Part shown: positions 3,640 to 38,156 of the stretch, piece by piece
Numbering within the stretch: the stretch's first letter is position 1
How the letters are laid out: each line of letters begins with the position of its first letter
Assembly: GCA_965243315.1 (NCBI GenBank)
Contig: CBDEUP010000007.1
Location: 1,833,668-1,897,667, forward strand
Direction: 5' to 3'
DNA: 64,000 nucleotides
Source: Alphaproteobacteria bacterium
Lineage (GTDB): Bacteria; Pseudomonadota; Alphaproteobacteria; UBA828
Translations under genes and position numbers: made by a program
The notes under the pieces: generated by a model
What the model was told of the DNA's origin: nothing
What the model saw: the letters and a program-made list of their open reading frames with translations, nothing else
Databases searched by the model: none

Positions 3640-3702
3640 CCGGCCACCACGCGCCGGTATAAGATCGGGGCACTTGGATCGACAGCCGGGTCGTGAGAGG
3701 AC

Positions 3703-4566
3703 ATGAAGCCGCCGCCGTTCGCCTACGAATGCCCCACCGAGGTGGCGGACGCCATCGCCCTGCTCGCGGCGCATGGCGCGGATGCGCGGCCGCTTGCCGG
3801 TGGGCAAAGCCTGGTGCCGCTACTCAATTTCCGCCTGGCACGGCCGACCGTTCTGGTCGATCTCAACCGCGTCGCGTCGCTCGGCCGCATCACGGTCGAG
3901 GATGGAACGCTTCGCATCGGCGCCATGGCCCGACAGGCGGCGGTCGAGGCCGATCCCGGCGTGGCGCGCGGCTGGCCGCTGCTGACCGAGGCCATCGGCC
4001 ACATTGCCCATCCCCAGATTCGCAATCGCGGCACTATCGGCGGCAGTCTCGCCCACAACGACCCGGCGGCGGAGCTGCCGGCGGTGATGCTGGCGCTCGA
4101 CGCCCAAATGACCACGCAAGGCCCGGAGGGGGCGCGTACCATCCAGGCCGACGACTTCTTCGCGGGCACGATGGAGACGGCGCTCGCGCCGGACGAGCTT
4201 CTGACCGAGATCAGGGGTCCCGCACTGCCTGATGGCACCGGCTGGGCCTTTCAGGAGGCTGCGCGCCGCCAGGGGGATTTCGCGCTCGTCGCGGTCGCGG
4301 TGCTGCTGCGGCCCTCCAGCGACGGTATCGACGCCAGCATCGTGGTCACCGGCACCGGCGACGGGCCCCAGCGCATACGCGGGGCGGAGGCGGTCCTTGC
4401 CGAGCGGGGAACGGACGGTGACGCGTGCGAGGCCGCAGGCAACGCCGCGGCCGAAGCCTCCGACCCGGCGGACGACCCCCACGCGCCGGCCTGGTATCGC
4501 CAGAAGCTCGTGGCTGCGCTCACCCGCCGTGCCTGCCGCGAGGCGGCCGCAAGGATGGGGCGCTGA
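3703..4566 (+). CDS. molybdenum hydroxylase FAD-binding (medium) subunit, CoxM/CutM/XdhB family
   Basis: 287 aa; FAD-binding fold (AGGQSLVPLLNFRLARP, RNRGTIGGSLAHNDPAAELP); its stop overlaps the start of the downstream 2Fe-2S subunit. Confidence 0.85.
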   Translation: MKPPPFAYECPTEVADAIALLAAHGADARPLAGGQSLVPLLNFRLARPTVLVDLNRVASLGRITVEDGTLRIGAMARQAAVEADPGVARGWPLLTEAIGHIAHPQIRNRGTIGGSLAHNDPAAELPAVMLALDAQMTTQGPEGARTIQADDFFAGTMETALAPDELLTEIRGPALPDGTGWAFQEAARRQGDFALVAVAVLLRPSSDGIDASIVVTGTGDGPQRIRGAEAVLAERGTDGDACEAAGNAAAEASDPADDPHAPAWYRQKLVAALTRRACREAAARMGR

Positions 4567-5055
4567 ATGGCGGACCATGGCCACAACGTCCGCGTCACCA
4601 TCAACGGCGAGGCCCACGAGCACCGCGTCGAGCCGAGGCTCCTGCTCTCGGACTTCATCCGGCACGAGGCCGGGCTCACCGGCACCCATGTCGGCTGCGA
4701 GCACGGCGTCTGCGGCGCCTGCACGGTGCTCTTGGACGGCGCGCCCGTGCGCTCCTGCCTCATGTTTGCGGTGCAGAGCGACGGCGCCTCGATCGAGACG
4801 GTCGAATCGCTAGCGGACGGCGAGACCCTGCACCCGCTACAGGAGGCCTTCCGCCGTGAGCACGGGCTGCAATGCGGCTATTGCACGCCTGGCATCTTGA
4901 TGACGCTCAAACCCTTTCTCGCCGCCAACCCGGCGCCGAGCGACGCCGAGATCCGCAAGGCGCTCTCGGGCAACCTCTGCCGTTGCACCGGCTACCAGCA
5001 GATCGTGGCGGCCGTGCGCCGGGCCGCGGCGGTGCTGAGGGGCGAGGAGCCATGA
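4567..5055 (+). CDS. molybdenum hydroxylase (2Fe-2S)-binding small subunit, CoxS/CutS family
   Basis: 162 aa; plant-type ferredoxin cysteines CEHGVCGACTV and second cluster CGYCTPG ... CRCTGY. Confidence 0.9.
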   Translation: MADHGHNVRVTINGEAHEHRVEPRLLLSDFIRHEAGLTGTHVGCEHGVCGACTVLLDGAPVRSCLMFAVQSDGASIETVESLADGETLHPLQEAFRREHGLQCGYCTPGILMTLKPFLAANPAPSDAEIRKALSGNLCRCTGYQQIVAAVRRAAAVLRGEEP

Positions 5056-7388
5056 CCGCGCGGCTGATCGGCGAGCCGGTCGAGCGGCGCGAGGATGCGC
5101 GCCTGCTCACCGGTCGCGCGCGCTTCATCGACGACATTCACCTGCCGGAGATGCTGCACGCCGCGGTGCTCCGCAGCCCTCACGCCAAGGCGCGCTTCAC
5201 GCGCATCGATGCCAGCGCGGCGCTCTCGCTTCCCGGCGTTCACGCGGTCATCACCCACGAGGACTTGGGCCCGGCCAACACACCCATGCCGCTCCTCAAC
5301 GAGGACCCCGGCTTCATCCATCCGCGCACCCATCGGGCGCTTGCGCCGGGGCAGGTTCGCTTCGTCGGTGAGCCGGTGGCGCTGGTGGTCGCAAAGAGCC
5401 GCTACCTGGCCGAAGACGCACTCGACCTGATCGAGGTCGACTATGCGCCCGAGGCGGCGGCGGTGGACCTCGTGGCGGCAGCAGAGTCAGGCGCGCCGCT
5501 GGTCCACGACGATACCGATTCCAACGTCGCCTGCCGCACCGCCGACAACACCGGCGATATCGAGAGCGCCTTCGCCGCCGCCGACTTCGTGCTGCGCGAG
5601 GAGCTCCGGCCCGAGCGGGGCGCCGCCCAGCCGATGGAGACCCGGGGCGTCGTCGCCCGCTACGACGCGAGCCTTGAGCAGCTCACGATCTGGGACACGA
5701 CCCAGGCGCCGATCAGTGCCCGCGGCGTCATCGCCGACAAGCTCGGCATGGCGGAAGCCGCCGTCACCGTGATCGCGCCTGACGTGGGCGGTGGCTTCGG
5801 CGTCAAGATCTATCTGGTTTACCCGGAGGAGGTGCTGGTCCCCTTCGCCGCCCGTCTGCTCGGCCGCCCCGTCAAATGGATCGAGGACCGCCGCGAGCAC
5901 TTCATCGGCTCCAACCACGAGCGGCTGATGGTGCACCACATCGAGGTGGCGGCGACCAAGGATGGGCGCATCCTCGGCATCAAGGACCACTTCCTCTACG
6001 ACAGCGGCGCCTACTGCCCCTACGGCCCCATCAACGCCCAGTGCGCCCAGGCCATCCTGCCGGGCCCCTACAAGATCCCGGCGGTGCACTCGACCTACGA
6101 GGCGGTCTACACCAACACGCCGACCGTGAGCCCCTACCGGGGTGCCGGCCAGCCACACGGCAACTTCGTCACCGAAGCGGCCATGAACCACGTGGCCCGC
6201 GCGCTCGGCCTGGATGCGGCCGAGACCAGGTGGCGCAATCTGGTGCGACCTGAGGACTGCCCCTGGGATTCTGGCCGCATCTTTCAGGGCAACACCCCGT
6301 TCATCCACCGCGATAGCGACTATCCCGCACAGCTCGCGAAGACACTCGACGCGCTCGACTATGCGGGCGTCAAGCGCGGCCAGCCGGCTGAGCGCGAGCA
6401 GGGAATCTTCCGCGGCGCCGGCATCGCCTTCTTCGTTGAAGGCACCGGCATCTCGCCCTACGAGGGGGTCGAGGTGCGGGTGGAGCCCACCGGCCACGTG
6501 CACGTGACGACGGGCTATCCCTCGCAAGGGCAGAGCCACCACACCACGCTTACGCAGATCGTGGCGGAGACCCTCGCCGTCCCGCCGGAGCAGGTGGTGG
6601 TGGAAAGCGGGCGGAGCGACCGCTTCGCCTGGGGCGTCGGCACCTTCGCCAGCCGTGCGGCCGTGGTGGGCGGCAACGCTGCGCTCGGTGCGGCCAAGGC
6701 GGTCCGGGCGCGGGCGCTCGACCTCGCTTCGGAGGAACTGGAGGCGGCGCTCGAAGACCTGGTACTGGCGGATGGGGCCGTGCATGTGAAAGGGGCGCCG
6801 CAAATGGCGGTGACGCTCGCCGCTCTTGCGTACGCGGCCAATCCCATCAACACGCTCGAATCGGGCGCAGAGCCGGGCCTCCGCGCCGCGGACTACTACC
6901 GCTCCCCCGATGGCGCGATAGCCAGCGGAGTCCACGGCGCGGTCGTGGTCGTGGATATCGCCACCGGCATGGTGGAGATCGAGACATACGTCGTGGTCCA
7001 CGACTGCGGGGTGATGATCAATCCCACCATCGTCGAGGGCCAGATACTGGGCGGCACGGCGCAGGGGATCGGCGGCGCCTTCTACGAGAAGCTCAGGTTC
7101 GACGAGGACGGCCAGCCGCTGGTGACCACCTTCATGGACTACCTGATCCCGACGGCCATGGAGATCCCGCCGATCGAGATCCACCACATGGAGAGCCGCT
7201 GCAGTCTCAACCCCCTGGGCGTCAAGGGGGTGGGGGAGGGCGGCGCGATCCCCGCTGCCGCGGCCTTCGCAGGGGCCGTGGAGGACGCGCTGGAGCCCTT
7301 CGGCGCGACCGTCCACGCCGTCCCCCTCGACCCGCCCGCCATCCTCGCGCTGATCGAGGGTCACGGCGGCAGCGGCGCGACTCCCTGA
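5052..7388 (+). CDS. molybdopterin-binding large subunit of xanthine dehydrogenase/CO dehydrogenase family (aldehyde oxidase/XDH a/b hammerhead + MoCo-binding)
   Basis: ATG at 5052 overlaps the small-subunit TGA (ATGA); starts MTARLIGEPVERREDARLLTGRARFIDD, typical of CoxL/XdhA N-termini; about 779 aa. The form-I CODH active-site signature (VAYRCSFR) is absent, so substrate unknown. The ORF-track start at 4872 is an upstream extension in the same frame. Confidence 0.9.
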   Translation: MTARLIGEPVERREDARLLTGRARFIDDIHLPEMLHAAVLRSPHAKARFTRIDASAALSLPGVHAVITHEDLGPANTPMPLLNEDPGFIHPRTHRALAPGQVRFVGEPVALVVAKSRYLAEDALDLIEVDYAPEAAAVDLVAAAESGAPLVHDDTDSNVACRTADNTGDIESAFAAADFVLREELRPERGAAQPMETRGVVARYDASLEQLTIWDTTQAPISARGVIADKLGMAEAAVTVIAPDVGGGFGVKIYLVYPEEVLVPFAARLLGRPVKWIEDRREHFIGSNHERLMVHHIEVAATKDGRILGIKDHFLYDSGAYCPYGPINAQCAQAILPGPYKIPAVHSTYEAVYTNTPTVSPYRGAGQPHGNFVTEAAMNHVARALGLDAAETRWRNLVRPEDCPWDSGRIFQGNTPFIHRDSDYPAQLAKTLDALDYAGVKRGQPAEREQGIFRGAGIAFFVEGTGISPYEGVEVRVEPTGHVHVTTGYPSQGQSHHTTLTQIVAETLAVPPEQVVVESGRSDRFAWGVGTFASRAAVVGGNAALGAAKAVRARALDLASEELEAALEDLVLADGAVHVKGAPQMAVTLAALAYAANPINTLESGAEPGLRAADYYRSPDGAIASGVHGAVVVVDIATGMVEIETYVVVHDCGVMINPTIVEGQILGGTAQGIGGAFYEKLRFDEDGQPLVTTFMDYLIPTAMEIPPIEIHHMESRCSLNPLGVKGVGEGGAIPAAAAFAGAVEDALEPFGATVHAVPLDPPAILALIEGHGGSGATP

Positions 7389-9330: not shown

Positions 9331-9969
9331 TTGCCGGCGGCTCCCGGAGCGGGTCCGATGATCGACCTCGACCGGCTGCGCCGGGCGCTGGTGCTGGGGG
9401 TGCTGGGGGCGGTCGCGATGGCGTTGCTGCTGCCCCCGCTGGCGCTGACGCGCCACACGGATGCCCACGACTGGTATGCCGCGCGCAAGGTAAGCGTGGC
9501 GCAGGCGCTGATCTTCGTCGGCTTCGACGAGCGCGCATTTACGGACTACCGCCTGGCGGACGGCACGCCCGTGAGGTGGACCCGCGACGGCGTGGCGACC
9601 TGGCCGGCGGCGCGGGAGTCTCGCGGTCTCATCCTCGCCGTCATCGGGGACAACATCCTGCTCGGCGCCATCGCGGGATTCGTGGTGGTGTTCACGCTGT
9701 CGGGGCTGCTGAACCTGGCGCGGCACGAAACGGCGGGGGTATGGGGGGCGGCTGCGCGGCGGCCTTCGGCAGCGGAGCGCCGGCCCGGCTTCATCGAAGG
9801 CGTGCCGCCGTATGCGGCGCACGAACCGAACCGTGTGCCGGCGAGAGCCGCCCCGGCGGGAGTTGGGCCGCTCCCGAACGCGGCAGTCCCCTCGCCCGAA
9901 CCGCCCGTCGAGGCGGAGCCCGAAGCGGCGTATGAGCCGCCCGCCCGTCCGCGCGGGCGCTGGTTCTGA
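9331..9969 (+). CDS. hypothetical membrane protein, translationally coupled to traA
   Basis: 212 aa (probable start at MIDLDRLRRALVLGVLGAVAMALLLPPLAL, ~9358); two or three hydrophobic helices, non-biased composition; stop overlaps the traA ATG (TGATGG). Confidence 0.45.
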   Translation: MPAAPGAGPMIDLDRLRRALVLGVLGAVAMALLLPPLALTRHTDAHDWYAARKVSVAQALIFVGFDERAFTDYRLADGTPVRWTRDGVATWPAARESRGLILAVIGDNILLGAIAGFVVVFTLSGLLNLARHETAGVWGAAARRPSAAERRPGFIEGVPPYAAHEPNRVPARAAPAGVGPLPNAAVPSPEPPVEAEPEAAYEPPARPRGRWF

Positions 9970-12900
9970 TGGTCGCCTCGATCGGCGCGGTCGCCTCGCC
10001 CGCCCAGGGGATCAGCTACTACGAGAAGGACTCCTACTACGCCAGGGATTCCGACGAGCACAAGGCAGCGAGCGCTTGGGCGGGCAAGGGGGCAGCGGAA
10101 CTCGGGCTCGAAGGCCCGGTGGACCCGGAGACCTTCCGCGCGGTGCTGGAGGGCGAGGTCCCGGACGGCTCGGGCAAGCGTATCGGCAAGCGCGGCAGGG
10201 AGGGCGAGATCCATCACCGCCCCGGCCGCGACCTGACCTTCAGCGCGCCCAAATCCGTGTCCCTGGCTGCGCTGGTCGGCGGCGACGAACGCATCGTCGG
10301 GGCGCACGACCGCGCGGTGGCGGGCGCGCTCGACTGGTTCGAGCGGAACGCCGCCGAGACCCGGATGCACGATCCCCAGGCTGGGCGCATGGTCCGTGCC
10401 GGCGGCCAGAAGACGGTGGTGGCCACCTTCCGGCATGACACGTCGCGGAACCTCGATCCCGCGCTGCACACCCATTCGGTGATCGCCAACATGCTGCTCG
10501 GCCCGGACGGAAAATGGCGCACCATGGCCAACGAGCGGCTCTACGGCTCGAAGATGGCGCTGGGGGCGCTCTACCGCAACGCGCTGGCGGGCGAGCTCGC
10601 GCGGCTCGGCTATTCCATAGAGAAGACCCACGCCGACGGCCGGTTCGAGATTGCCGGGGTCTCGCGCGAGATTGTGGAGGCGTTCTCGACGAGACGCGCC
10701 GAGATAGAGGCGGCGATGGAGGGCCGGGGCCTCGGCACGACGGGGGAGAACCCGCATCTCGCGCGGCGGGCGGCGCTGATGACGCGCGCGGCCAAGCGCG
10801 AGGTCGACCGCGACGCGCTGAGGGAGACCTGGGAGAAGCAGGCCGCCGCCCTCGGCTTCGATGCGAAAAGGCTGGTCGCCGAGGCGATGGAACGCCACGG
10901 GGCCGAGAAGGCGCGCGAGGCAGAACCAGGCAAGGACGGTCCCCCGGCACCGCCGCGCCAGCCGGACCTGTTCGAGCATGCCGCGAAAGCCGACCCCGCG
11001 CGCGCTGCGGTGGACTGGGCTCTGGCCCATCTCTCGGAGCGCGACGCGGTGTTCTCCACCACCGACCTGCTCGCGGCCGCGCTCGCCTTCGAGCCCGGCA
11101 CGGCCTCCATTGGCGATATCGAGCGCGCCGTGGACGGCCTCAAGCGCGAGGGCCGGCTGCACGATGCGCCTGCATTGGAGGGCGGCGGCGGATTGACCAC
11201 CGACAAGGCGCTGGCCGAGGAGCGCGAGACGGTCGCGCTGATGCGCGCCGGCGAGCGGCGCGGCAAGGCGCCGATGCGCGGCTGGATGGTGGAGCGGCAC
11301 CTGCGCAAGGGTCCGCTCACCGCCGGGCAGAAGCAGGCGGTGAAGCTGATCCTCTCCGAGAAAGACAGAACGGTGGGCGTCCAGGGCTACGCCGGCACGG
11401 GGAAGACGAAGATGCTCGCGCGCGCGAGAACGCTCGCGGAGAAGAAGGGCTGGCGCATGGTGGGCTTGGCGCCCTCGGCCTCGGCGGCGAACACGCTCAA
11501 CTCCGAATCCGGCATCGCCTCGGAGACGCTGCAACGCTTCCTCGCCCGCAACGCGGGCGTCGCCGAGGGCCGGCTGACGAAGAAAGGCGCGAAGGAAATG
11601 CGCAGCCGCTTCGCCAAGACGGTGCTGGTGGTCGACGAGGGCTCGCTCGCTTCCACCGTCCAGGCGCGCGACCTGCTGCGGATCGCCGGTGTGCTGCGTG
11701 TCCCGAAGCTGGTGCTGGTGGGCGATGCGAAGCAGCTCGACGCGGTGGACGCCGGCAAGCCCTTCGCCCAGCTCCAGGCTGCCGGCATGAAGACGGCGGT
11801 GATGGACGAGATCCTGCGCCAGCGCGACCCGGACCTGAAGGCGGCCGTCGGGGCGAGCCTCGCGGGCGAGATCGGCAAGGCGTTCGACAGGCTCGGCGAC
11901 AACGTGGCCGAAGTGAAGGCGGACAATATCGCCGGCGCGGTCGCCGCGCGCTGGCTCAAGCTCTCGCAGGATGAGCGCGAGCGCACCGGGGTGATGGCGC
12001 CGAGCCACGCGCTGCGCGAGGGGATCAACGGCCATATCCGCGAGCGCCTGGTGCGCGAGGGCCGCATCGCGGGTCCCGCCCTGGAGACCCAGCGGCTGGT
12101 CTCGAAGGGCTATACCAACGCGGAGAAGTCGCTCGCGGCCAACTACGCGGCTGGCGACGTGGTCGCCTTCCACCGCGCCTACAAGCGCATCGGCGTCGCC
12201 AAGGGCGAGGAACGCCGGGTCGCCGGCGTCGGCCGCCGGAAGAGGACCGTCCTGCTCGAAGCGCCGGGCGGCGGGACCGTCGCCTGGAAGCCGTCCGAGA
12301 TCGGCGGGCGGCAGGGGGGAACGGAGGTCTACCGCCGCGAGAGCATCGAGCTTCGCGCGGGCGACCGCATTCGCTGGACCCGCAACGACAAGGGTCTCGG
12401 GCTGGTCAACAGCGGCGCAGCCGAAGTCATGGGCATCCGCAACGGCCGCGTGACGTTCCTCCTGGAGGACGGGCGCCGGCTCACGCTCACCCCGGGCGAC
12501 CCGCAACTGCGCCATCTCGACCGCGCCTGGTGCTCGACCGTGCACGCGTTCCAGGGCCGCACCGTCGATAATGTCATTGCCGCGATGGAGGCGAATCATC
12601 CGGCGCTGACGACGCAGAAAGCCCTCTATGTCGAGATCAGCCGCGCCCGCGACCGGGCGGAGCTGGTGACCGACGACGCGCAGGCGCTCAAGGAACGGCT
12701 CGAAGCGGTCACCGGCGAGCGGATCTCGGCGCTCGAAGGCGTCGGCGAGGACGTGCGCGAGCGAGCCGAACGCGGCCGGGAAACCGCGCCGGAAGCGAAG
12801 GAACGCGAGCGCGACCGGGCCGAAGACCCTTCCACGAAGCGGATCGAAACCGCGCACGAGCGGGACGAAAAGGCCGCGCGGGAGAAGGCCGCGCCGGCCG

Positions 12901-13016
12901 GGGACAGGGCCGCGCCCTCGTCGCCGGAGCGGAACCTCGGCCGCGAGGCGCCGCAGCGCAAGGCGCCCGAGCCGCCGGCGAAGGCGAGGGTGCGCGAGTA
13001 CGATCTCGGCATGTAG
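9969..13016 (+). CDS. traA: MobF-family conjugative relaxase/helicase (TrwC/TraA-type)
   Basis: 1015 aa; N-terminal TrwC relaxase with tyrosine pair ISYYEKDSYYA and histidine triad ...DPALHTHSVIANM; central helicase with Walker A GYAGTGKT and C-terminal UvrD-like STVHAFQGRTVD. Confidence 0.92.
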   Translation: MVASIGAVASPAQGISYYEKDSYYARDSDEHKAASAWAGKGAAELGLEGPVDPETFRAVLEGEVPDGSGKRIGKRGREGEIHHRPGRDLTFSAPKSVSLAALVGGDERIVGAHDRAVAGALDWFERNAAETRMHDPQAGRMVRAGGQKTVVATFRHDTSRNLDPALHTHSVIANMLLGPDGKWRTMANERLYGSKMALGALYRNALAGELARLGYSIEKTHADGRFEIAGVSREIVEAFSTRRAEIEAAMEGRGLGTTGENPHLARRAALMTRAAKREVDRDALRETWEKQAAALGFDAKRLVAEAMERHGAEKAREAEPGKDGPPAPPRQPDLFEHAAKADPARAAVDWALAHLSERDAVFSTTDLLAAALAFEPGTASIGDIERAVDGLKREGRLHDAPALEGGGGLTTDKALAEERETVALMRAGERRGKAPMRGWMVERHLRKGPLTAGQKQAVKLILSEKDRTVGVQGYAGTGKTKMLARARTLAEKKGWRMVGLAPSASAANTLNSESGIASETLQRFLARNAGVAEGRLTKKGAKEMRSRFAKTVLVVDEGSLASTVQARDLLRIAGVLRVPKLVLVGDAKQLDAVDAGKPFAQLQAAGMKTAVMDEILRQRDPDLKAAVGASLAGEIGKAFDRLGDNVAEVKADNIAGAVAARWLKLSQDERERTGVMAPSHALREGINGHIRERLVREGRIAGPALETQRLVSKGYTNAEKSLAANYAAGDVVAFHRAYKRIGVAKGEERRVAGVGRRKRTVLLEAPGGGTVAWKPSEIGGRQGGTEVYRRESIELRAGDRIRWTRNDKGLGLVNSGAAEVMGIRNGRVTFLLEDGRRLTLTPGDPQLRHLDRAWCSTVHAFQGRTVDNVIAAMEANHPALTTQKALYVEISRARDRAELVTDDAQALKERLEAVTGERISALEGVGEDVRERAERGRETAPEAKERERDRAEDPSTKRIETAHERDEKAAREKAAPAGDRAAPSSPERNLGREAPQRKAPEPPAKARVREYDLGM

Positions 13017-13135: not shown

Positions 13136-14335
13136 ATGGCCGGGTCCGACAAGAATCGTAAGCCCCACGGTCGCACAATCCGCTGCGCCGGCGGCTACCG
13201 GGCGTTCCTTCCGGCCCCGCTTCCGCCGCCGATCGGGTGGAACGATACGCTGGCCATGGCTCTTTCAAGCGCGGACCTCGCAGTCGGACGCCTCGCCGGA
13301 GAGGGAAGCCGGTTTCCAAACCCGCATCTCTTTATCCGCTCCTTCGTGCGCCGGGAAGCGGTATTGTCGAGCCGGATCGAGGGGACGCGGACGACGCTTG
13401 CCGAATTGCTCGCCGCCGAAGCCGGTGCGAAGGACGCGGCGGACAGCGCCGACTTGCGCGAAGTGGCGAACTACGTTGCCGCGCTCGAATACGGGCTCGA
13501 CCGTCTCGACACCTTGTCGTTGTCGCTGAGGCTGATCCGCGAGATTCACGGGCGGCTCATGCGCGGGGTGCGGGGCGATTCGGCGACGCCGGGAGAGTTC
13601 CGCCGCAGTCAGAACTGGATCGGCCCGCCCGGCTGCACGCTGGACGACGCGAGCTACGTGCCGCCCCCGCCCGACGAGTTGATGGACTGCCTCGACGCCC
13701 TGGAGCGGTTTCTTCACGACGACAGCCTTCCGGTGCTGGTGCATGCGGCGCTCGCGCACGCGCAATTTGAGGCGATCCATCCGTTTCTCGACGGCAACGG
13801 CCGGGTCGGCCGGCTGTTGATCACGCTGCTGCTGGCCGAGCGCGGCATCCTGCCCTCGCCGCTGCTCTATCTGAGCGCGTATTTCGAGGAGACCCGCGAA
13901 GATTACTATGCGCATTTGCTCGCGATTACGGAGGCGGGCGCGTGGGAAGACTGGCTCGTCTACTTCCTGCGCGGTGTCCGGTTGCAGGCGGACGACGCCC
14001 TCGCGCGCATCGAACACCTCGACACTTTGCACGAGTCCTGGCGCGACGATCTCGGCGACGCGCTGTCGCCTCGGCTCAACGAGGTCCTGAGCCTGTTCGT
14101 GGAAAGCCCGTTCTGGACCGTCGGCGAGATCGGCAAGACGCTCGGTATTGCCTATACCACCGCGCGGCGCGCGGTCGACCGGCTGGAAGAGGCCGGTATC
14201 GTGTCGCCGTCCGGGCCGTCGAGACGCAACCGGGTCTACTGCGCGCGCGCCGCTCTGGAGGCGCTCAGCGATCCGCTGCAACTGGCAGAGCCCTCCGGTC
14301 CCGGTGCTCGCGCAGGATCGCCGGACGGTCCTTGA
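13136..14335 (+). CDS. Fic/Doc family protein (class II Fic, putative AMP-transferase) with C-terminal winged-helix domain
   Basis: 399 aa; Fic active-site motif HPFLDGNGRVGR; N-terminal inhibitory-helix motif SSRIEG ([S/T]xxxE[G/N]); conserved N-terminus YRAFLPAPLPPP. Confidence 0.9.
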   Translation: MAGSDKNRKPHGRTIRCAGGYRAFLPAPLPPPIGWNDTLAMALSSADLAVGRLAGEGSRFPNPHLFIRSFVRREAVLSSRIEGTRTTLAELLAAEAGAKDAADSADLREVANYVAALEYGLDRLDTLSLSLRLIREIHGRLMRGVRGDSATPGEFRRSQNWIGPPGCTLDDASYVPPPPDELMDCLDALERFLHDDSLPVLVHAALAHAQFEAIHPFLDGNGRVGRLLITLLLAERGILPSPLLYLSAYFEETREDYYAHLLAITEAGAWEDWLVYFLRGVRLQADDALARIEHLDTLHESWRDDLGDALSPRLNEVLSLFVESPFWTVGEIGKTLGIAYTTARRAVDRLEEAGIVSPSGPSRRNRVYCARAALEALSDPLQLAEPSGPGARAGSPDGP

Positions 14336-15216: not shown

Positions 15217-15891
15217 AACCGGCGTATGCTCCGGAGAAGCACGCTCGCTCCGCAATCCTGCTGTCGTCTCCTGTCCTCTCACGGCCTCTCAAGGGCACTG
15301 GAGGGCACGTCTGTCCCCCAATGGCGGGCCTTGCAGCGGGCTGCGTCCGGTGTGAGAACGACGCGCCGAAGGGCGTCCTGATCCTGCTTCCTTGACGCCC
15401 AAGCACTCGGGACATGGAAGCCGTTTTGTAACCGGCATTTAGCCCGAGCGGCGCTTGAGCGGCAGCGCCCGCCGCGCATGAGAGAGAACGGTCTACGAAC
15501 CGCCGCGCGGCATCCGACCGGTAGTGTAGGAAGCACGAGACGGCGAAGCAATTGCAAACCGACCCGCGCACTGGCCGGGTCATTCGTGCGGCCCGCGCTG
15601 TCGGCGACGGCGCGCACGATGCCCGGCGCGAAGTCGTGCCCGCTACGGCATCCGACCGTCGGTCCCTTCTCGCATTGTGCGGCGAACCGCGTGCGGCTAT
15701 CGGTGCGGCCATGCGATCATCGTCGCGCTTCAATGCTCAACGGTCGCCCGCGCCCAAGCCGCCGCAGTCGAGCTTGCGCGTCGCACGGGGCGACCGCATG
15801 GTGACGGGAACGGGAGGCGAGCGAGGAGACATGCGCCGATGAACAATGCCGCGTCATCAGAACGCGCGACCGGTCGGCACTGCCGATCGGT

Positions 15892-16922
15892 GTGCTCGTC
15901 GTCACGGTCGGCGCGATGACTCCGGGCGCGTTCATCGCCAAGTGGCGGGCGTCGGAGTTGAAGGAAAGCTCGGCGTCGCACGAACACTTCATCGACCTGT
16001 GCCGCCTGCTCGGCGAGCCGACGCCGGCGGAGGCCGACCCGGCGGGCGAGCGGTACTGCTTCGAGCGTGGCGCGCGGAAGGACACCGGCGGCGACGGCTG
16101 GGCCGACGTATGGAAGCGCGGCTTCTTCGCATGGGAGTACAAGGGCAAACGCGCGGACCTCGACGCGGCGTTCAATCAACTGCGGCAGTACGCGCTCGCG
16201 CTGGAGAATCCGCCGCTGCTGATCGTCTCGGACATGGCGCGGTTCCGCGTCCGCACCAACTGGACGAACAGCGTGAGCGTGACGCACGAGTTCACGCTCG
16301 ACGACCTCGCCGACGGCGCGACCCGCGACAAGCTCAAGTGGGCGATGTCGGACCCGGAGCGGCTGCGGCCCGGCGAGACGCGGCAGACGGTGACGGAGCG
16401 CGCGGCGGCAACCTTCGCGGAGCTTGCCCAAGGGTTGCGGGATCGGGGCCACGACCCGCAGACGGTGGCGCACTTCGTCAACCGTCTGGTGTTCTGCATG
16501 TTCGCCGAGGATGTCGGCCTGCTGCCCGGCGACATGTTCACCCGGATGCTGGAACAGGCATGCAGGCGGCCGGACGAGTTCGCTGAGCTTGCCCGCGACC
16601 TGTTCGGGGCAATGTCTGTCGGAGGCCGCGTCGGATTCGAGTCCGTGGCCTGGTTCAACGGCGGGCTGTTTGACGACGACACGGCGTTGCCGCTCGACCG
16701 GCAAGGAATCGAGACGGCGCTCAAGGCGGCGGCGCTCGACTGGTCGGAGATCGACCCGTCAATCCTCGGCACACTGTTCGAGCGCGGCCTCGACCCGGAC
16801 AAGCGTTCGCAGTTGGGCGCGCACTACACCGACCGCGACAAGATCATGCGGATCGTCGAGCCGGTGATCGTTCGGCCCCTGCTCGCGGAATGGGAGACGG
16901 CGAAGGCCGGGATCGCGGCTAC
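15892..16922 (+). CDS. MmeI-family type IIL restriction-modification enzyme, exon 1 (N-terminal PD-(D/E)XK endonuclease domain and linker)
   Basis: N-terminal FIAKWRASELKESSASHEHFIDLCRLLGEPTP...DVWKRGFFAWEYKGKRADLDAAFNQLRQYALALENPPLLIVSDMARFRV parallels the MmeI nuclease domain; LFERGLDPDKRSQLGAHYTDRDKIMRIVEPVI is the MmeI/PglX-family helical motif. The reading frame is interrupted after ...ETAKAGIAAT (codon AC|) by a group II intron starting GTGCG at 16923. Confidence 0.75.
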
Positions 16923-18839
16923 GTGCGCCAGGCTAACTGGTGACAGTGCAGCCGGTGAAAGTCCGGCAGGAGGGAGAAGATTAGCCATCACCTTCACCCC
17001 GAGTCATGGGCCGTCATCCGCGAGGATGGAGGTTAAGCGTTGACAGGGGCGCGTGCGGGCAGGGCTATTGAGCACCGAAAGAGATTTGGTCCGGGATGCC
17101 GAGGTCTTGTAGTCAACCGAAGGCAGCATCCGACCCACCGATTTGGCGAGGGGGGTCGGAATCCCGCGGTGTCGAAGAACCCACGCACGTACGTACGCAC
17201 TGCACCGGGACCTGGGAGGTCTCCATGCCATCCCGCTGTCGTGGCGGGATCGCAAAGGAAAGGAGGAATCCGCAACCGATGATGAACGGCATGGAGAAGT
17301 CAGACTCGGCCATAGTAGCCGCGAAGCCGGCGAACAATGGGGCGCCAGCCCCGGCGGAGCCGGTGGAGCCAAGGGCCGAGCCCAAGGGGAATCCGGGAAG
17401 CCAAAGCACGTGCCGGACGCAGGACCGGGAAAGCGTGACACAGGCGGCGGACCGGATACGGCAATTTGTACAACGGGAGCCACGGGTACGTCTCACGACG
17501 CTCCTTCACCACATCACGGTCGATGCGCTGCGCTGGGCGTTCTTCGAGTTGAAGAAGGACGCTGCGGCAGGCGCGGATGGCACAACGTGGCGGATGTACG
17601 AGGAAGGGCTGGAAGGCCGGCTGGCCGACCTGCACGACCGAGTACATTCGGGGGCGTACCGAGCGAGGCCATCACGGCGGGTGAACATACCGAAGCCGGA
17701 TGGCGGGACACGACCGCTCGGCGTCGCGGCCATAGAGGACAAGATAGTCCAGAAGGCGGTGGCGGAGATTATCCTGACGCCGATTTACGAGGCGGAGTTC
17801 CTGGGGTTCAGCTACGGGTTCCGGCCCGGGCGTGGAGCGCATGACGCGCTCGATGCGCTCGCGGTCGGCATTCAACGGCGCAAGATCAACTGGGTGGTGG
17901 ACGTTGACGTCCGCGCATTCTTCGACACGGTTTCGAGGGACTGGCTGGTCCGGTTCCTTGAGCACCGCATCGGGGACAAGCGGGTTATCAGGCTCATCAT
18001 CAAATGGTTGAACGCCGGCGTCATGGAAGCTGGAGAGTGGCGGGACAATCTGCGGGGAACGCCTCAAGGGTCGGTGGCTTCACCGATTCTGGCGAACGTC
18101 TACCTGCACTACGTCCTCGACCTGTGGTTCCAGAAGAAGTGGCGCAACCACGAAGTCGGAGGCGACACAATCATCGTGCGGTACGCGGATGATTTCGTGG
18201 TGGGTTTTCAGCACAAGCGGGATGCGGAGCGATTCCTGAATGCCATAAAGGAGCGGCTTGGAAACTTCGGCCTGGACATACACCCTGACAAGACCCGGCT
18301 CATTGAGTTCGGGCGGTTCGCCCATGGAAACCGTCGGCAACGAGGGCTGGGCAGACCGGAGACCTTCGACTTTCTGGGCTTCACGCACTACTGCACGGAG
18401 ACCAGACGGGGGTGCTTCATGTTGGGGCGCAAGCCGGTTGCCAAGCGGATGAGTCGCACCCTGAAACGGCTCAAGGAAGCGCTACGCAGGCGTATGCACA
18501 GCGACATGATTGGCACGGCAAGATGGCTAGGGAAGGTGGTCTCAGGCTGGCTGAACTACTTTGCGGTTCCGACCAGCCACCGCTATCTGCGCCGCTTCGT
18601 CGAACGCCTAAAGTGGCTGTGGTGCAGGAATGTGCGCCGCAGGTCGCAAAAGGACCGCTACAGTCTGGACCGTATCGCAGCGTTAGCACGGCAATACTGG
18701 CCCAAGCTGAAAATTCGACACCCATGGCCGGACCAGCGACTTGCCGTCAATTGAACCCAAGGGAGGAGCCGGATGCCCTAGCGGGCACGTCCGGATCTGC
18801 GCGGGGGGCGTGTGGGACAACCCGCGTTCCTACCGCAAT
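16923..18839 (+). mobile_element. group II intron (about 1.9 kb) inserted in the RM gene
   Basis: 5' end GTGCGCC; IEP ORF in domain IV; domain V GAGCCGGATGCCCTAGCGGGCACGTCCGGATCT (18766-18798) matches the GAGCCGTATG...CACGTACGGTTC consensus with compensatory changes; a ~40 nt domain VI then ends ...CGCAAT (AU). Removing 16923-18839 joins AC+C and restores the downstream MTase frame. Confidence 0.8.
17279..18754 (+). CDS. group II intron-encoded protein (reverse transcriptase/maturase; no HNH endonuclease domain seen)
   Basis: SD AGGAGGA 10 nt upstream of ATGATG; RT blocks TTLLHHITVDALRWAFFELKKDAAAGADGTTW, IPKPDGGTRPLGVAAIEDKIVQKAV, FLGFSYGFRPGRGAHDAL, IVRYADDFVVGF (YADD); C-terminal domain X WLNYFAVPTSHRYLRRF. 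The ORF track starts the frame earlier at 17096. Confidence 0.85.
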   Translation: MMNGMEKSDSAIVAAKPANNGAPAPAEPVEPRAEPKGNPGSQSTCRTQDRESVTQAADRIRQFVQREPRVRLTTLLHHITVDALRWAFFELKKDAAAGADGTTWRMYEEGLEGRLADLHDRVHSGAYRARPSRRVNIPKPDGGTRPLGVAAIEDKIVQKAVAEIILTPIYEAEFLGFSYGFRPGRGAHDALDALAVGIQRRKINWVVDVDVRAFFDTVSRDWLVRFLEHRIGDKRVIRLIIKWLNAGVMEAGEWRDNLRGTPQGSVASPILANVYLHYVLDLWFQKKWRNHEVGGDTIIVRYADDFVVGFQHKRDAERFLNAIKERLGNFGLDIHPDKTRLIEFGRFAHGNRRQRGLGRPETFDFLGFTHYCTETRRGCFMLGRKPVAKRMSRTLKRLKEALRRRMHSDMIGTARWLGKVVSGWLNYFAVPTSHRYLRRFVERLKWLWCRNVRRRSQKDRYSLDRIAALARQYWPKLKIRHPWPDQRLAVN

Positions 18840-20670
18840 CGTCGAACGCGCGGACGTGGCGGGTTCTCCGGCGGCGCAGACACGGCTACGGCGGCAGGCG
18901 GACCGGGCGCTGCGCACCTTCCTCGACCGGCTGCGGCAGTTCACCGTGCTCGACCCGGCCTGCGGGTCGGGGAACTTCCTGTATCTTGCGCTGCACGCGC
19001 TCAAGGACATCGAGCACCGGGTCCAGCTCGAAGCGGAGACGCTCGGCCTTGCGCGCGGGTTCCCGGCGGTCGGCCCGGCGAACGTGAAGGGAATCGAGAT
19101 CAACGCCTACGCCGCCGAGCTTGCCCGCGTGTCGGTGTGGATCGGCGAAATCCAGTGGATGCGGCGCAACGGGTTCAGCAATTCGACCAATCCGATTCTC
19201 GATCCGCTCGACACCATCGAATGCCGCGATGCGGTCCTTTCGCCCGACGGAGGACAACCGGACTGGCCCGACGCCGACGCCGTGATCGGCAACCCGCCGT
19301 TTCTGGGCGACCGGGTGATGCGGGACGGACTCGGCCACGACTATACAGAGCGCCTGCGCCGCGCCTATCGCGGTTCCGTCCCGGCGTCCGCAGATCTTGT
19401 TTGCTACTGGTTCCACAAGGCAGGCCAGCTAATCGCCGGAGAGAAGATCGCCCGCGTCGGTCTGGTCTCCACCAACTCGATCCGCGGCGGAAATAACCGG
19501 GCGGTACTCGACCGGATCGTCGAGGACAGCGCCATTTTTGACGCTTGGTCCGACGAACCCTGGGTTATCGACGGTGCGGCGGTGCGGGTCTCGCTGGTCT
19601 GCTTCGCGCCGAAGGGCGCCGACCTGCCCGTTACGCTGGACGGTGCCGCGGCGGCGCGCATCAACCCAGACCTGACAGGCGGGGGCCTCGACCTCACGCA
19701 AGCGGCGGGACTGCCCGCAAACCGTGCTGTTGCCTTCCTTGGCGTCAATAAGAATGGCGCTTTCGACATTCCGGGGGATGTTGCGCGGGAATGGCTGGGC
19801 CTGCCCGCCAACCCGAACGGGCGTCCGAACGCCGATGTCTTGAAGCCTCGGATCGTCGGAATGGATGTGGTGCGCCGGTCATCCGACCAATGGATTATCG
19901 ACTTCGGCGTTTCCATGACCGAAGCCGAGGCTGCACTCTACGAAGCCCCGTTCGCTCATGTTGCGGAGCATGTGAAGCCGGTACGGGCGACCAACCGAAT
20001 CAAGGCGCTTAGGGAAGAATGGTGGCGACACTCGCGGCCCCGTCCGGCGATGTGGCGGGCCGTAAGCGGCATGAAACGCTTCATCGCGACGCCGACCCTT
20101 GCAAAGCATCGGCTGTTCGTCTGGCTCGATGCGGGCGTCTGTCCCGACCATCAGTTGATCGTCATCGCCCGCGACGACGACGTGACCTTCGGCATCTTGC
20201 ACAGCCGGTTTCACGAGGCATGGTCGCTGCGGTTGGGGACCTGGCTCGGCAAAGGGAACGATCCGCGCTACACGCCGACCACCACCTTCGAGACCTTCCC
20301 CTTCCCGGACGGCCTCTCGCCGGATATTCCCGCCGCAGACTATGCGGAAGACTCCCGCGCCGTCGCCATCGCCGAGGCCGCAAGGCGATTGGTCGAGTTG
20401 CGCGACCGCTGGCTCAACCCGCCCGAATGGGTGGAATGGATCGACGAACCCGTTCCCGGCTATCCGAAACGTACTGTCCCCCGCGACGAGGCGGCGGCAA
20501 AGGAACTCAAGGCCCGCACGCTGACAAACCTGTACAATGCCCGCCCGCAATGGCTGACCGACGCGCACTCGGCACTTGATGCCGTTGTCGCTGCGGCCTA
20601 CGGATGGGACAAGAGGATCAACGACAATGTGGCAATGAACAAATTGCTCACGCTAAATCTGACAAGATAG
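18840..20670 (+). CDS. MmeI-family type IIL RM enzyme, exon 2 (gamma-class N6-adenine methyltransferase and target-recognition domain)
   Basis: After the junction reads VERADVAGSPAAQTRLRRQADRALRTFLDRLRQFTVLDPACGSGNFL (SAM motif I) ... DAVIGNPPFLGD (motif IV NPPF). The spliced product would be about 945-953 aa, similar to MmeI (919 aa). Confidence 0.75.
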
Positions 20671-20705
20671 AACGCCGCCGCCAACCGTAAGTGTAGGAGC
20701 CAGTT

Positions 20706-21659
20706 ATGGCGCAAAGTAAGTCCAAGAGTTTCTTAGGCCGAGAAACTCGCGAGTATGTTGATTTCATTATTGGTGTCGATGATTCCGGGAAAACAATTAC
20801 GTATACCTCAAATCCGAGTGCGTTGGCGAATTTTTTTGGTGCAAACCCAAACGCTCCGAATTTCCTAACCCAAGTTCATTTCCGAAGGGATGTGCTGGAC
20901 AAGTATTATCAGAAACCGAGCACATACTCGGTGAAAAGCGGGATTCTGCATGGCGGTCATGAGTGGGGGTTGCCAATGGACAACAACCACGAGGACAAGG
21001 TTTGTGCGTGGTTGGGTGATCTTGGTCGCATTCCCTACGACGAGCAACTCCACTGGCGGGCACACAACATTCCGCCCAGCGGTACGTTAAGCGAGACTTT
21101 CTACGCCAATCAAATCTTGGCAACGCCAACAGATTCAAACCGCCCAGACCATCTGTTTATGAGAAGTTACGACAAATTGCAGAAGGTGTGGGGAGAGAAT
21201 CTAAGTTGGTCCGTTCTGGTTCCCTTGAGCTCTGACGATAGCCATCATCTGCAAACCCTGAGGATTCCGTCTACTGAGGAACAACGTGAGTTCGATGAGT
21301 TAGTGCTGAGTCTCACAAAGGTACTGATTGATTCAATCAACGAAAAGAAGTTGAAAGAAGTGATTCCAGAATTATGCAATGATAGCAGCACCTCTGGACT
21401 CAATGTTCTAGAACGCGCATTGCAGAGCATCGGAATCGAAAATTTTTCCATCCACATTCATTACCTGAGAAAGCTCCAGGCGCTAAGGTCAGCGGGTGTA
21501 GCGCACAGGAAAGGGAAACGATATGAAAAACTGTCTAGTGAGCTTGGCATAGGAAGCAAGAGTTTTCGCGTGGTGTTCGCGGAACTTCTAGAAGGTGGAA
21601 CAGACTACTTGGATTTTCTCACTTCTGTGGCGAATGATTGCCGCATGCACTCATCCTGA
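20706..21659 (+). CDS. hypothetical protein, conspicuously low-GC, 36 nt downstream of the RM gene
   Basis: 317 aa; no motif I can recognise; Lys/Asn/Ser-rich and locally ~45% GC against ~68% surroundings; same strand as the RM gene and probably co-transcribed. Confidence 0.5.
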   Translation: MAQSKSKSFLGRETREYVDFIIGVDDSGKTITYTSNPSALANFFGANPNAPNFLTQVHFRRDVLDKYYQKPSTYSVKSGILHGGHEWGLPMDNNHEDKVCAWLGDLGRIPYDEQLHWRAHNIPPSGTLSETFYANQILATPTDSNRPDHLFMRSYDKLQKVWGENLSWSVLVPLSSDDSHHLQTLRIPSTEEQREFDELVLSLTKVLIDSINEKKLKEVIPELCNDSSTSGLNVLERALQSIGIENFSIHIHYLRKLQALRSAGVAHRKGKRYEKLSSELGIGSKSFRVVFAELLEGGTDYLDFLTSVANDCRMHSS

Positions 21660-21699
21660 ATGCTAGAAAACTCGTGCCCCGTTCTTGGACCCGCTGATT

Positions 21700-22926
21700 T
21701 CAGAACCAGCGCCCGCATATACGGCGAGCGCGGGGACTGGAAGGCGACGGCGTGTCGTGGAGTTTCATCGCTTCTGCGATGATGCTCCCGACGTTCTCCG
21801 CTGTTTCGACCAGATGGCCGTCGGCAAGGTGCGCATAACCCGCAGTAGTCTCGTGCCTGCGATGGCCGAGCAGCTTGCCCACGAGCGGCAGGTTTTCGCC
21901 CGACATGACGGCGTGGCTCGCCGCCGTGTGCCGCAAATCGTGCAGCCGGACCTTGCCGAGCTTCGCGTCGTCGCAGACCGCTCGCCAGCAGTTGACAATC
22001 CGGTGTGCGTGTCTGCCCCCGGCGAGGTTCGGAAACAGGAACGCATCGGGGTCGCGTGGGCCGGGCAGTGCCGCGATGACCGCCCGCGCGGCTTCGCCGA
22101 GCGGCACGCTGCGCGGTCCAGTCTTGCTATCGCGCAAGGCGATGGCGTTCTCTCCGATGTGGCGCCAGCGGAGATTAAGCACTTCGCCCCGGCGGCAGCC
22201 GGTGAGCGCCAGCAGGCGGATGGCGGCGACAGCCTCGGGTCGTTTGTCCTCGCGGGCGTCGAGCGCCCGCCCGAGCCGGGCGAGTTCGTCGGTGTCGAGG
22301 AACCGGGCGATGTTGCGCCTCGGGTTCTTCCTGATGCCGAGACAGGGATTGGTGCCCGGCTCGCGGAAGCCGTATTCCTCGGCCCGGAACATCATGGAGC
22401 GCAGTATCTCGAAGGCGCGGTTGGCCGCGCCGGGCCGGTCCCGGCTCGCTTCGTCGAACCACGCGGCCACATCCTCCGGGCCGACGCGCTCCACCGGCAT
22501 CTTGCCGAAGGCAGGCAGGATGCGGGCCTTGAGATAGATGCGGATGGTCTTGCGTCCCGACGGCTTCCAGTAGGGATCGCAGCGCCGGAGATACTCATCG
22601 GCCAGCATGGCCACGGTCGGGGCCGTCTTCTCCTTGCGGATGTCGTCGGCGGGATTGTCGCCCGCCTGGATGCGCGCGAGGATATCGCGGGCGCGGCGGC
22701 GGGCATGCGCCAGGTCCATCTCCCCGTAACGGGCGATGACGATGCGCCGGGACTTCCCCTCGATGCGGGTCTGCACGATCCACGCCTTCGCACCGGACCG
22801 GTGGACGCGCAACCCGAAGCCGGGCAGCGCCCGGTCGAACAGGAACACGTCCCGGTCGTCGGGTTCGGTCTTGCGGGCCAGCTTGGCGGTGAGGTCAACC
22901 GTCGGCATGATCGCACCCTCCCTCAT
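21700..22926 (-). CDS. tyrosine-type integrase (DUF4102 N-terminal domain)
   Basis: 408 aa; DLTAKLARKTEPDDRDVFLFDRALPGFGLRVHRSGAKAWIVQTR; C-terminus RLHDLRHTAASHAVMSGENLPLVGKLLGHRRHETTAGYAHL. Confidence 0.9.
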   Translation of the reverse strand: MREGAIMPTVDLTAKLARKTEPDDRDVFLFDRALPGFGLRVHRSGAKAWIVQTRIEGKSRRIVIARYGEMDLAHARRRARDILARIQAGDNPADDIRKEKTAPTVAMLADEYLRRCDPYWKPSGRKTIRIYLKARILPAFGKMPVERVGPEDVAAWFDEASRDRPGAANRAFEILRSMMFRAEEYGFREPGTNPCLGIRKNPRRNIARFLDTDELARLGRALDAREDKRPEAVAAIRLLALTGCRRGEVLNLRWRHIGENAIALRDSKTGPRSVPLGEAARAVIAALPGPRDPDAFLFPNLAGGRHAHRIVNCWRAVCDDAKLGKVRLHDLRHTAASHAVMSGENLPLVGKLLGHRRHETTAGYAHLADGHLVETAENVGSIIAEAMKLHDTPSPSSPRARRICGRWF

Positions 22927-24085
22927 TCACCGCACCGCTACCGGCCAGAGCCGCCCCGATGCGCCCGGACACCCGGTCGGCGGCCTCGGCAACCGAGCGG
23001 TCGGACAGGTGGACGTATCGCTCGGTCGTCTCGACCAGCGCGTGACCCAACAGCTTCGCGATGCTCACCATGTCCACGCCGTTCATGGCGGCGACCGAGG
23101 CCCACGAATGTCTGAGGTCATGAAGCCGCAGGCCGGGCAAGCCCGCCTCGGCGCGGATGCGGTCCCACTGGAAGGCGATGTTGTCGACGGGCCGCGTCGG
23201 CGGGCGGGCGGGAAACAGATACGGGCAATCCGCGCTGTAGCGCGGGATGGCGTCGATCACCGCCCGCGCGGCGCCGGACAACCAGACCGTGCGCGGCCCG
23301 GATTTCGAATCGGGCAGGAAGATGCGCCGGTCCCTGATCCAGTCCCATTCGAGCGCGGCGATCTCGCCGAAGCGGCAGCCGGTCAGCATCAGCAGGCGGA
23401 CGATGGCCACGACATCGGGGCAGCGGAACTCGTCGCGGGTCAGCACGACGTTGAGCCGGACCATTTCCTCCGCCGTCAGGAACCGCTCCTTGGCCTGGGT
23501 CTTGTAGCGCCGCGTATTTTTGCAGGGATTGGAGTTGTGCCGGCGGTATCCCCAAAGCTCGGCCATGCGCATCATGACGGACAGGGTGGGCATGGCGCGG
23601 TTGGCGTTGCCGGGCTTGTCGGCCATGGATGCGAACCAGTCCCGGACGTTCTCGACAGTGATGGCGTCCACCGTCATATGCCCGAAGGCGGGCAAGATGT
23701 GGTTGCGGACGACGTAGGTGCTGGCCGTCAGGGTCTTGGGCTTCCAGTGCCGCGCGTAGCGTTCGAGAAACTCCTCGGCGAACGCGGCCATGGGGTGTCC
23801 CGGCGTCTTCGGGCCGCTGCCCTTTACCTCCGGTTCGATGTAGCTCTCGATCAGCCTGCGGGCCTCGCGCCGCGCCTCGGGGATCGTCATGGCGTCGGCG
23901 CTGCCGATGGTGGCGTATCGCCTGCGCCCGCGCACCATGCGGGCGAGGAAGAAGGTCCGGACTCCGGTGGGCTGGATGGAAAGCGCCAGTCCACTCACCA
24001 CGTCGTCGCGGACTTCGTACTTGGCAGTTCTTGGCTTTGCGGCGCGGACGCGCCGGGCGAAGGTGGATTTGGTCTGGTCGCTCAT
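22895..24085 (-). CDS. tyrosine-type integrase, tandem to and overlapping the previous one by 32 nt
   Basis: 396 aa; YEVRDDVVSGLALSIQPTGVRTFFLARMVRGRRRYATIG; C-terminus LRLHDLRHSWASVAAMNGVDMVSIAKLLGHALVETTERYVHL. Confidence 0.9.
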   Translation of the reverse strand: MSDQTKSTFARRVRAAKPRTAKYEVRDDVVSGLALSIQPTGVRTFFLARMVRGRRRYATIGSADAMTIPEARREARRLIESYIEPEVKGSGPKTPGHPMAAFAEEFLERYARHWKPKTLTASTYVVRNHILPAFGHMTVDAITVENVRDWFASMADKPGNANRAMPTLSVMMRMAELWGYRRHNSNPCKNTRRYKTQAKERFLTAEEMVRLNVVLTRDEFRCPDVVAIVRLLMLTGCRFGEIAALEWDWIRDRRIFLPDSKSGPRTVWLSGAARAVIDAIPRYSADCPYLFPARPPTRPVDNIAFQWDRIRAEAGLPGLRLHDLRHSWASVAAMNGVDMVSIAKLLGHALVETTERYVHLSDRSVAEAADRVSGRIGAALAGSGAVNEGGCDHADG

Positions 24086-38153: not shown

Positions 38154-38156
38154 CTT

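Follow-up and report, generated by a model that had tools for sequence, protein, structure and literature searches.

Group II introns that lie within bacterial protein-coding genes are a minority. In bacteria, these introns are usually housed in the cargo of mobile elements (PMC4424553), the transfer genes of integrative and conjugative elements (ICEs) being a case in point, and where an intron interrupts a mobile-element gene the full-length protein needs splicing (PMC12479173). All intron-encoded proteins (IEPs) of class E are without an endonuclease (En) domain (PMC4424553), and RmInt1 is the model for priming at the replication fork (PMC5894124). A disrupted intron on pRmeGR4b of Sinorhizobium meliloti has been named as the class E intron S.me.I4 (PMC5894124), and the structural hallmarks of the IIE/IIF introns are a 5-nt loop in domain V (DV) and an alpha' element at the terminal loop of Id3 (PMC3753933). 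Here, we analyzed a 64,000-nt stretch of contig CBDEUP010000007.1 from an alphaproteobacterial assembly (GCA_965243315.1), referred to as the window. We conclude with good confidence from its sequence that a class E intron, complete and apparently functional, inserted recently and in sense orientation into an MmeI-family restriction-modification (RM) gene of a mobilizable island. This conclusion is carried by the demonstrated anatomy of the intron, its exact junctions, an intron-less allele, two pairings between exon-binding and intron-binding sites (EBS1-IBS1 and EBS3-IBS3), and the class assignment.

The intron occupies positions 16923..18839 of the forward strand (1917 nt; bacterial class E with IIB-like RNA) and runs from a 5' GUGCG to a 3' ...CCUACCGCAAU. 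Its first bases, GTGCG at 16923, directly follow the end of exon 1 (...GCG GCT AC, to 16922), and its 3' terminus, ...CCTACCGCAAT (...AAU), at 18839 is followed by exon 2, which opens with C GTC GAA CGC at 18840. The GUGYG and AY boundary signatures are thus present at the 5' and 3' ends, and both ends are fixed independently by an empty-site allele, contig L079. The domain I core (16958..17181, forward strand) matches the Rfam model RF02005 (group-II-D1D4-6) over its full length, model positions 1-225 of 225, at 176.4 bits (E 2e-51; gathering score 49), which was the single match in a gathering-threshold Rfam scan of the entire window. DV (18765..18798, forward strand) has an AGC triad and a 2-nt bulge, with a predicted UAGC loop of 4 nt or 6 nt, depending on the closing pair. 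Domain VI (DVI; 18801..18836, forward strand) has a bulged UA, in which the A at 18832, the 8th nucleotide from the 3' end, is the candidate branch point. A consensus fold of DV and DVI from the last 86 nt of 23 distinct intron copies contains 27 pairs, 7 of them with compensatory double changes.

All but 444 nt of the intron is taken up by the open reading frame (ORF) of the IEP, a reverse transcriptase (RT)/maturase of 491 amino acids (17279..18754, forward strand) with a YADD motif and an X/maturase domain; read from an upstream ATG at 17225, it has 509 amino acids and is identical to P0121, a database protein. It matches the NCBIfam model TIGR04416 (group_II_RT_mat) at 354 bits (cut-off 300) over residues 84-455, and RVT_1 is its sole Pfam match. 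No D/En (HNH) domain was found in it with Pfam, NCBIfam, or PADLOC, and just 36 residues lie beyond the maturase match. A preliminary description of this DNA had placed a group II intron with these elements here and had its IEP lacking an HNH domain; all elements fall at, or no more than 1 nt from, the positions it gave, a combination well outside what chance would give, and the missing domain is borne out.

The interrupted gene is also on the forward strand. Exon 1 (15892..16922; GTG start at 15892, alternative ATG at 15916) encodes the MmeI_N nuclease and helicase-spacer regions and ends with the AC of a Thr codon. Exon 2 (18840..20670) begins with the C (IBS3) that completes this codon and encodes the methyltransferase (MTase) motif I (DPACGSGNFL), NPPF, the target recognition domain (TRD), and the C-terminal region. 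When 15892-16922 is joined to 18840-20670, the result is 2862 nt, or 953 codons without a stop, read across the in-frame AC/C fusion already proposed in the preliminary description (here and below, a slash marks the junction); the ligated exons are predicted to read ...GCGGCUAC/CGUCGAA. The spliced protein matches the Pfam families MmeI_N (45.6 bits), MmeI_hel (52.5 bits), and MmeI_Mtase (108.9 bits), all above their cut-offs, while MmeI_TRD, at 25 bits, falls short of its cut-off of 27. The PADLOC model REase_MTase_IIG gives 1018 bits, as scored on a 96%-identical homologue (P0001). In an alignment with the MmeI structure 5HR4, the PD-ExK catalytic residues D70/E80/K82 of MmeI are conserved as D64/E74/K76 (numbered from the ATG at 15916). 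The order on the one chain is N-terminal nuclease, helicase-spacer, gamma-class N6A MTase, and TRD, and from these matches the host gene is identified as one for a single-polypeptide MmeI-family (Type IIG/IIL) RM enzyme, in agreement with the earlier assignment. NCBI labels its homologues "class I SAM-dependent DNA methyltransferase." We rejected membership of the methylase in a BREX or DISARM system; the similarity is local to the MTase domain (17-21 bits in NCBIfam, with cut-offs of 400-900), and the partner genes are absent.

Uninterrupted homologues are abundant. When the spliced product was searched against a collection of 5.8 billion proteins, there were thousands of matches, and the best 120, which we examined, were all uninterrupted, with lengths of 936-982 amino acids and identities of 78-96%; nearly all covered 97-100% of the query. 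The intron lies between the two MmeI-matched halves, in the linker before the MTase domain. An alignment with the best 40 homologues shows no gap at the junction, and the codon split by the intron, Thr here, is variable among homologues (T, M, K, A, R, G, L, or V).

The closest homologue is encoded on L079, which carries the same locus without the intron. Positions 1-1573 of L079 align to 15349-16922 and positions 1574-4833 to 18840-22105, so that the alignment breaks exactly at the predicted splice sites, as a comparison with intron-less homologues should show if the proposed junction is right. Of the 40 nt on each side of the junction, L079 shares 39 upstream and all 40 downstream, and its identity is ~100% over 16749-20066, a segment spanning the insertion site. 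Because the flanks are nearly identical to those of the intron-less allele, the sequences indicate that the insertion is recent. In comparison with L079, the RM gene is also a mosaic: two patches, 16549-16648 and 20166-20265, are just 57% and 79% identical, respectively, while identity is otherwise ~100% over 16749-21765 and ~90% upstream of 16549. This pattern suggests recombination between alleles, possibly touching specificity.

We evaluated exon recognition in a comparative set of 45 distinct related intron copies, which provide 33 unique loop/exon combinations for EBS1. The last 6 nt of exon 1 (IBS1, GGCUAC, 16917..16922, forward strand) pair at 6 of 6 positions with EBS1 (GUAGUC, 17109..17114, forward strand) in the hairpin loop of domain Id. 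Mean EBS1-IBS1 pairing in the set is 5.55 of 6 positions, compared with 4.03+-0.13 when exons are shuffled among introns (maximum 4.58 in 2000 shuffles). The EBS1 columns are complementary to exon positions -1 to -5 in 40-44 of the 45 introns, with 3-4 Watson-Crick pair types, a strong covariation that bears out the EBS1-IBS1 match anticipated in the preliminary description. EBS3, the G at 17174..17174 (forward strand), pairs with IBS3, C18840, the first base of exon 2; the two positions are complementary in 42 of 45 introns, and all four Watson-Crick pair types occur. Judged from this covariation, 3'-exon recognition is of the IIB type.

EBS2 is less clear. A single-stranded internal loop of domain I (17078..17091, forward strand), as given by the RF02005 structure line, holds the candidate EBS2, GAUUUGGUC (17083-17091), opposite a candidate IBS2, GGCCGGGAUC, at 16905..16914 of the forward strand (exon positions -18..-9). 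A column covariation scan for EBS2 over the 45 introns gave no clear signal. In RNAduplex calculations on the loop nucleotides alone, GAUUUGGUC pairs with GGCC(G)GGAUC at -7.7 kcal/mol (9 bp and 1 bulge), a value equalled by 62 of 2000 shuffles, so this computed EBS2-IBS2 pairing in the RM gene is suggestive only. The 9-mer CGGGATCGC, at 16906-16914 in exon 1 (positions -17 to -9), recurs at 17243-17251 in the 3' arm of a hairpin, probably domain IVa, that immediately precedes the start codon of the IEP, and is found at a similar upstream distance from an unrelated insertion in another locus (L038). The sharing may be coincidence, or the 9-mer may be a protein-recognition element.

The class assignment rests on pairwise IEP identities and on the Rfam family, with S.me.I4 and RmInt1 as references. 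The IEP is 52.6% identical over 321 amino acids (344 bits) to the disrupted RT of the pRmeGR4b intron and 36% identical (191 bits) to the IEP of RmInt1, which is of class D. Furthermore, the RNA of the pRmeGR4b intron matches RF02005, at 145 bits, while RmInt1 matches RF01999. Since the IEP is nearer to that of the pRmeGR4b intron than to that of RmInt1 and the Rfam family is shared, the window intron is assigned, by sequence, to bacterial class E. A blastn comparison of the window ribozyme with the S. meliloti class E intron gave no match; the kinship is seen at the protein and covariance-model levels alone.

The nearest relatives of the intron lie elsewhere. P0121, the representative of the IEP cluster and 100% identical to the window IEP, is recorded on three NCBI contigs, and through other proteins of this cluster we reached contigs whose introns are 97-98% identical to the window copy at the nucleotide level. 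Two of these sit in higB-like toxin genes (L090, 3776-5692, ...GUCGACUAC/CAUUGA; L091, 4922-6835, ...GUGGAUUAC/CACUGA, with a truncated IEP), one codon before the higB stop (...VEIVDY/H-stop) and upstream of an HTH_3 antitoxin gene. In both loci, the antitoxin gene thus lies 3' of an intron inside a toxin-antitoxin operon. A third copy (L092), 98% identical, has the same 3' junction, at 3949; this intron is split near its position 1153, inside the RT ORF, by a 2.2-kb element with a large serine recombinase (L092 954-3183). The three share the target consensus ...GAYUAC/CAYUGA and, with the window copy, EBS1, which is fully Watson-Crick complementary to GACUAC, as well as EBS3. Given that copies 97-98% identical to ours lie there with the same EBS1 and EBS3, the end of higB appears to be the usual homing site of the sub-lineage and the RM site, GGCUAC/C, a look-alike that is secondary or retargeted. 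The window contains no unoccupied higB-type target.

We propose that the intron came from a donor lineage homing to the last codons of higB toxin genes and arrived through reverse splicing into DNA, with EBS1, EBS2, and EBS3 as guides. As the IEP has no endonuclease, cDNA synthesis would probably have been primed by nascent strands at the replication fork, as for RmInt1 (PMC5894124, PMC4424553). Cumulative GC skew is positive on the forward strand of the window, in line with insertion into the lagging-strand template. Full-length RM enzyme would come only from mRNA spliced with the help of the intron's own maturase. The unspliced transcript would give the IEP and a truncated N-terminal fragment (383-amino-acid ORF, 15892-17043), the exon 1 reading frame entering the intron for 39 codons to a stop at 17043. 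Because restriction and modification are on one chain, a failure of splicing would lose both together and should be harmless; hence, the insertion would be tolerated. As a matter of logic, the earlier statement that RM function depends on splicing holds, but it is silent on whether splicing occurs.

Several points weigh against the view of a working intron in a gene that remains in use. The match of RF00029 (DV and DVI) to 18764-18839 in a permissive Rfam scan of 16800-19000 (37.5 bits, E 3e-5) falls slightly short of the gathering score of 40, although the consensus fold of 23 copies supports it. The AGC triad of DV has a G.A opposition in place of G.U at its middle pair, and the DV loop is not GNRA; the former holds across the whole lineage and the latter for all relatives, so that both are best read as lineage traits. 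The EBS2-IBS2 pairing draws on few sequences, namely, three close copies. Flank GC skew is positive at 25 of 42 related insertions, which is a weak test (sign test p=0.28, Wilcoxon p=0.035). With the insertion being recent, the intact host ORF is no proof that the gene is still used or under selection, and both splicing and enzyme production are predictions from sequence.

These points leave room for the insertion to be an effective knockout, in which splicing from this ectopic context is poor or absent, the RM gene is silenced and heading toward a pseudogene, and the in-frame junction is what any group II insertion would produce. RmInt1, which is also without En, splices at a very low level in its natural host, where its insertion blocks the host insertion sequence (IS) (PMC5894124). 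Two relatives are decaying (the truncated IEP of L091 and the split intron of L092), the ~100% identity of the flanks to the intron-less allele leaves too little time for decay to be visible here, and the harmless joint loss of restriction and modification fits a knockout equally. However, the ribozyme elements and the IEP are all intact in the window copy, EBS1, EBS3, and probably EBS2 fit the RM exon well, as splicing requires, and class E/F ribozymes are highly reactive in vitro (PMC3753933). We consider a knockout quite possible without being probable, and we prefer the reading of a recent insertion of an apparently functional intron.

How such an intron reached the RM gene is addressed by its differences from the L090 copy. 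Of 54 in total, 6 affect the 444 non-ORF nucleotides, and 3 of these 6 are within the 14-nt loop at 17078-17091 (P ~6e-4, by a hand binomial calculation). According to RNAduplex, higB-type loops, in which EBS2 reads UUAUGUY, pair with the RM exon at -2.7 and -3.5 kcal/mol and with their own exons at -3.6 and -5.7 kcal/mol, while the window loop pairs with the higB exons at -2.1 and -3.9 kcal/mol; the substitutions shift the pairing with the RM exon to the -7.7 kcal/mol given above and weaken that with the higB exons. The candidate EBS2 therefore co-varies with the exon among the three close copies, which suggests, from three sequences, that EBS2 was retargeted toward the RM exon. The concentration of substitutions in the loop and the direction of the energy shift weigh against the RM site having been reached by chance, through ectopic retrotransposition of a higB-homing intron, with the three loop differences being coincidental drift. 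Such an origin would nonetheless suit the residence of three of the four known copies of the sub-lineage at higB, the lack of a second RM-resident copy in 78 genome loci and in metagenome scans, the want of a clear signal in the family-wide EBS2 column analysis, and the frequency with which shuffled sequences equalled the duplex. We regard chance ectopic insertion with drift as rather unlikely.

The fullest form of the retargeting idea, that the RM copy is a derivative of a toxin-gene-homing intron that kept EBS1 and EBS3 and acquired three EBS2 substitutions fitting the RM exon, is one that we put forward as improbable in its entirety. If the changes followed insertion, they would be a record of host or island selection for efficient splicing of a defense gene, and splicing would gate a single-chain restriction enzyme at the post-transcriptional level; had they preceded it, this class E lineage would hop between the addiction and defense genes (higB and Type IIG RM) of mobile islands via small EBS2 changes. 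An assembly artifact, in which a repeated intron was misplaced into the RM gene, is extremely improbable: the family is highly repeated in related metagenome-assembled genomes (MAGs), with >25 copies in one genome, and repeats are often misassembled, but the junctions coincide base for base with GUGCG and with the terminus of DVI, and the exon fits the EBS1 (6/6), EBS3, and private EBS2 variant of this very copy, a cognate pairing that a chimera would not give.

The RM gene is part of a larger mobile unit. Upstream are a TrwC relaxase/helicase gene (9969-13016, forward strand), the mobilization gene of the island, and, directly before the RM gene, a gene for a SoFic-type Fic protein (13136-14335, forward strand; PADLOC SoFic, 389 bits), so the island has at least two defense-type genes. 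Further upstream of TrwC lie the chromosomal genes for MutS and a CO-dehydrogenase-type oxidoreductase. Downstream, a 317-amino-acid ORF (20706..21659, forward strand) begins 36 nt after the RM gene, and two tandem tyrosine integrase genes (21700..24085, reverse strand; Pfam Phage_integrase and Arm-DNA-bind_3) mark the island edge. L079 and a further locus, L081, contain the same module of RM gene, 317-amino-acid ORF, and integrase(s); L081 also has the tandem integrase pair. No tRNA attachment site was found within the window. This gene content identifies the island as integrative and mobilizable and the RM gene as part of its accessory cargo. The preliminary description noted that bacterial group II introns usually avoid essential coding sequence; as accessory cargo, this gene is not of that kind, and the location conforms to where such introns are normally found.

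The 317-amino-acid ORF directly follows the RM gene in L079 and L081 as well, and its product is 100% identical in L079, L088, and L089. It has no match in Pfam, NCBIfam, or PADLOC, and its G+C content is ~55%, compared with ~68% around it; it may encode an unrecognized partner of the RM enzyme. Elsewhere in the window, a giant ORF of 3810 amino acids (38122-49554) with at least 7 Calx-beta repeats (338 bits) likely encodes a surface or adhesion protein and has no relation to the intron.

To place the intron in a wider family, we scanned 185,579 species-representative genomes with the IEP and obtained 78 loci with related introns (L001-L078), 73-87% identical to the window intron at the nucleotide level. 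With introns of 69-87% identity counted, the hosts are MAGs of Alphaproteobacteria, Binatia, Vicinamibacterales, Longimicrobiales, Chloroflexi, and Entotheonella, a spread across phyla that implies horizontal transfer within a shared habitat; judging from the names of MAGs and samples, this habitat may be the marine sponge microbiome. A tblastn search of the 78 loci with the spliced RM protein found no second RM-resident copy. One candidate, L002, was rejected: the C-terminal fragment of an MmeI-family protein is encoded ~1.9 kb upstream of the intron there, and the other island proteins are absent. A 23-mer from exon 1 had no match in a metagenome DNA scan, and the lone metagenome match to the EBS1-loop pattern (L087) was a chance match with no intron.

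Copy number and arrangement vary within the family. One alphaproteobacterial MAG (CBDHDJ01) contains >25 intron copies. Many relatives among L004-L028 and L046-L051, the >25 copies of CBDHDJ01 included, start with GAGCG, not GUGCG, yet have clearly proliferated. In L008, L011, L013, and L019, introns stand head to tail in tandem (for example, 3500-5415 and 5416-7331 in L019); the 3' end of one copy, ...CCUACCGCGAU, abuts the GAGCGCC of the next, and the common target is ...GACCGGCUGG/CGSGU....

Introns inside genes of mobile elements are already well known; for RM genes, MmeI-type or other, our full-text literature searches turned up no earlier description of a group II intron. Three features go beyond the ordinary here: filled and empty alleles occur as a pair, an intron of higB toxin genes has moved to an RM gene and its EBS2 seems to have been rewritten, and the family is widespread in MAGs of several phyla. 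The intron-less allele, ~100% identical around the site, is a natural control, and near-identical copies of the intron lie at another target, higB. The locus thereby offers a system for asking how an En-less class E intron changes target specificity, whether splicing limits the output of a defense gene, and how class E introns spread among cohabiting bacteria of different phyla. Furthermore, gene callers fragment intron-split genes, with the result that defense inventories miss them or label them pseudogenes.

Comparison with characterized systems shows which features of this locus are shared. The window enzyme has the domain order, D-X9-E-X-K motif, motif I, NPPF, and single chain of ~950 amino acids of MmeI (PDB 5HR4), although the two are distant (phmmer E 1.6e-40, in two stretches) and MmeI_C is not detected in the window enzyme. 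The intron is like the known class E introns (S.me.I4 on pRmeGR4b and Cl.be.I2) in its En-less IEP, IIB-like RNA with EBS3, and small ribozyme of ~440 nt outside the ORF; however, the known introns lie in IS or intergenic DNA, whereas the window copy is in an RM gene, its sub-lineage is known from uncultured MAGs only, and the 5-nt DV loop typical of the class is not clearly matched by its predicted UAGC loop. RmInt1 (class D, IIB3) is likewise En-less and recognizes its target via EBS1, EBS2, and EBS3, but it is of a different class, and its homing target is an insertion sequence, not a defense gene. Ll.LtrB, in the relaxase gene ltrB, and the introns of Streptococcus suis ICEs, in virB4, coupling-protein, and helicase genes, also interrupt, at a defined site, a protein gene carried by a mobile element. 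Those introns hit conserved motifs of transfer genes, with the same site recurring in many elements, whereas the window intron, in the one occupied copy known, lies at a variable codon in the linker of an RM enzyme.

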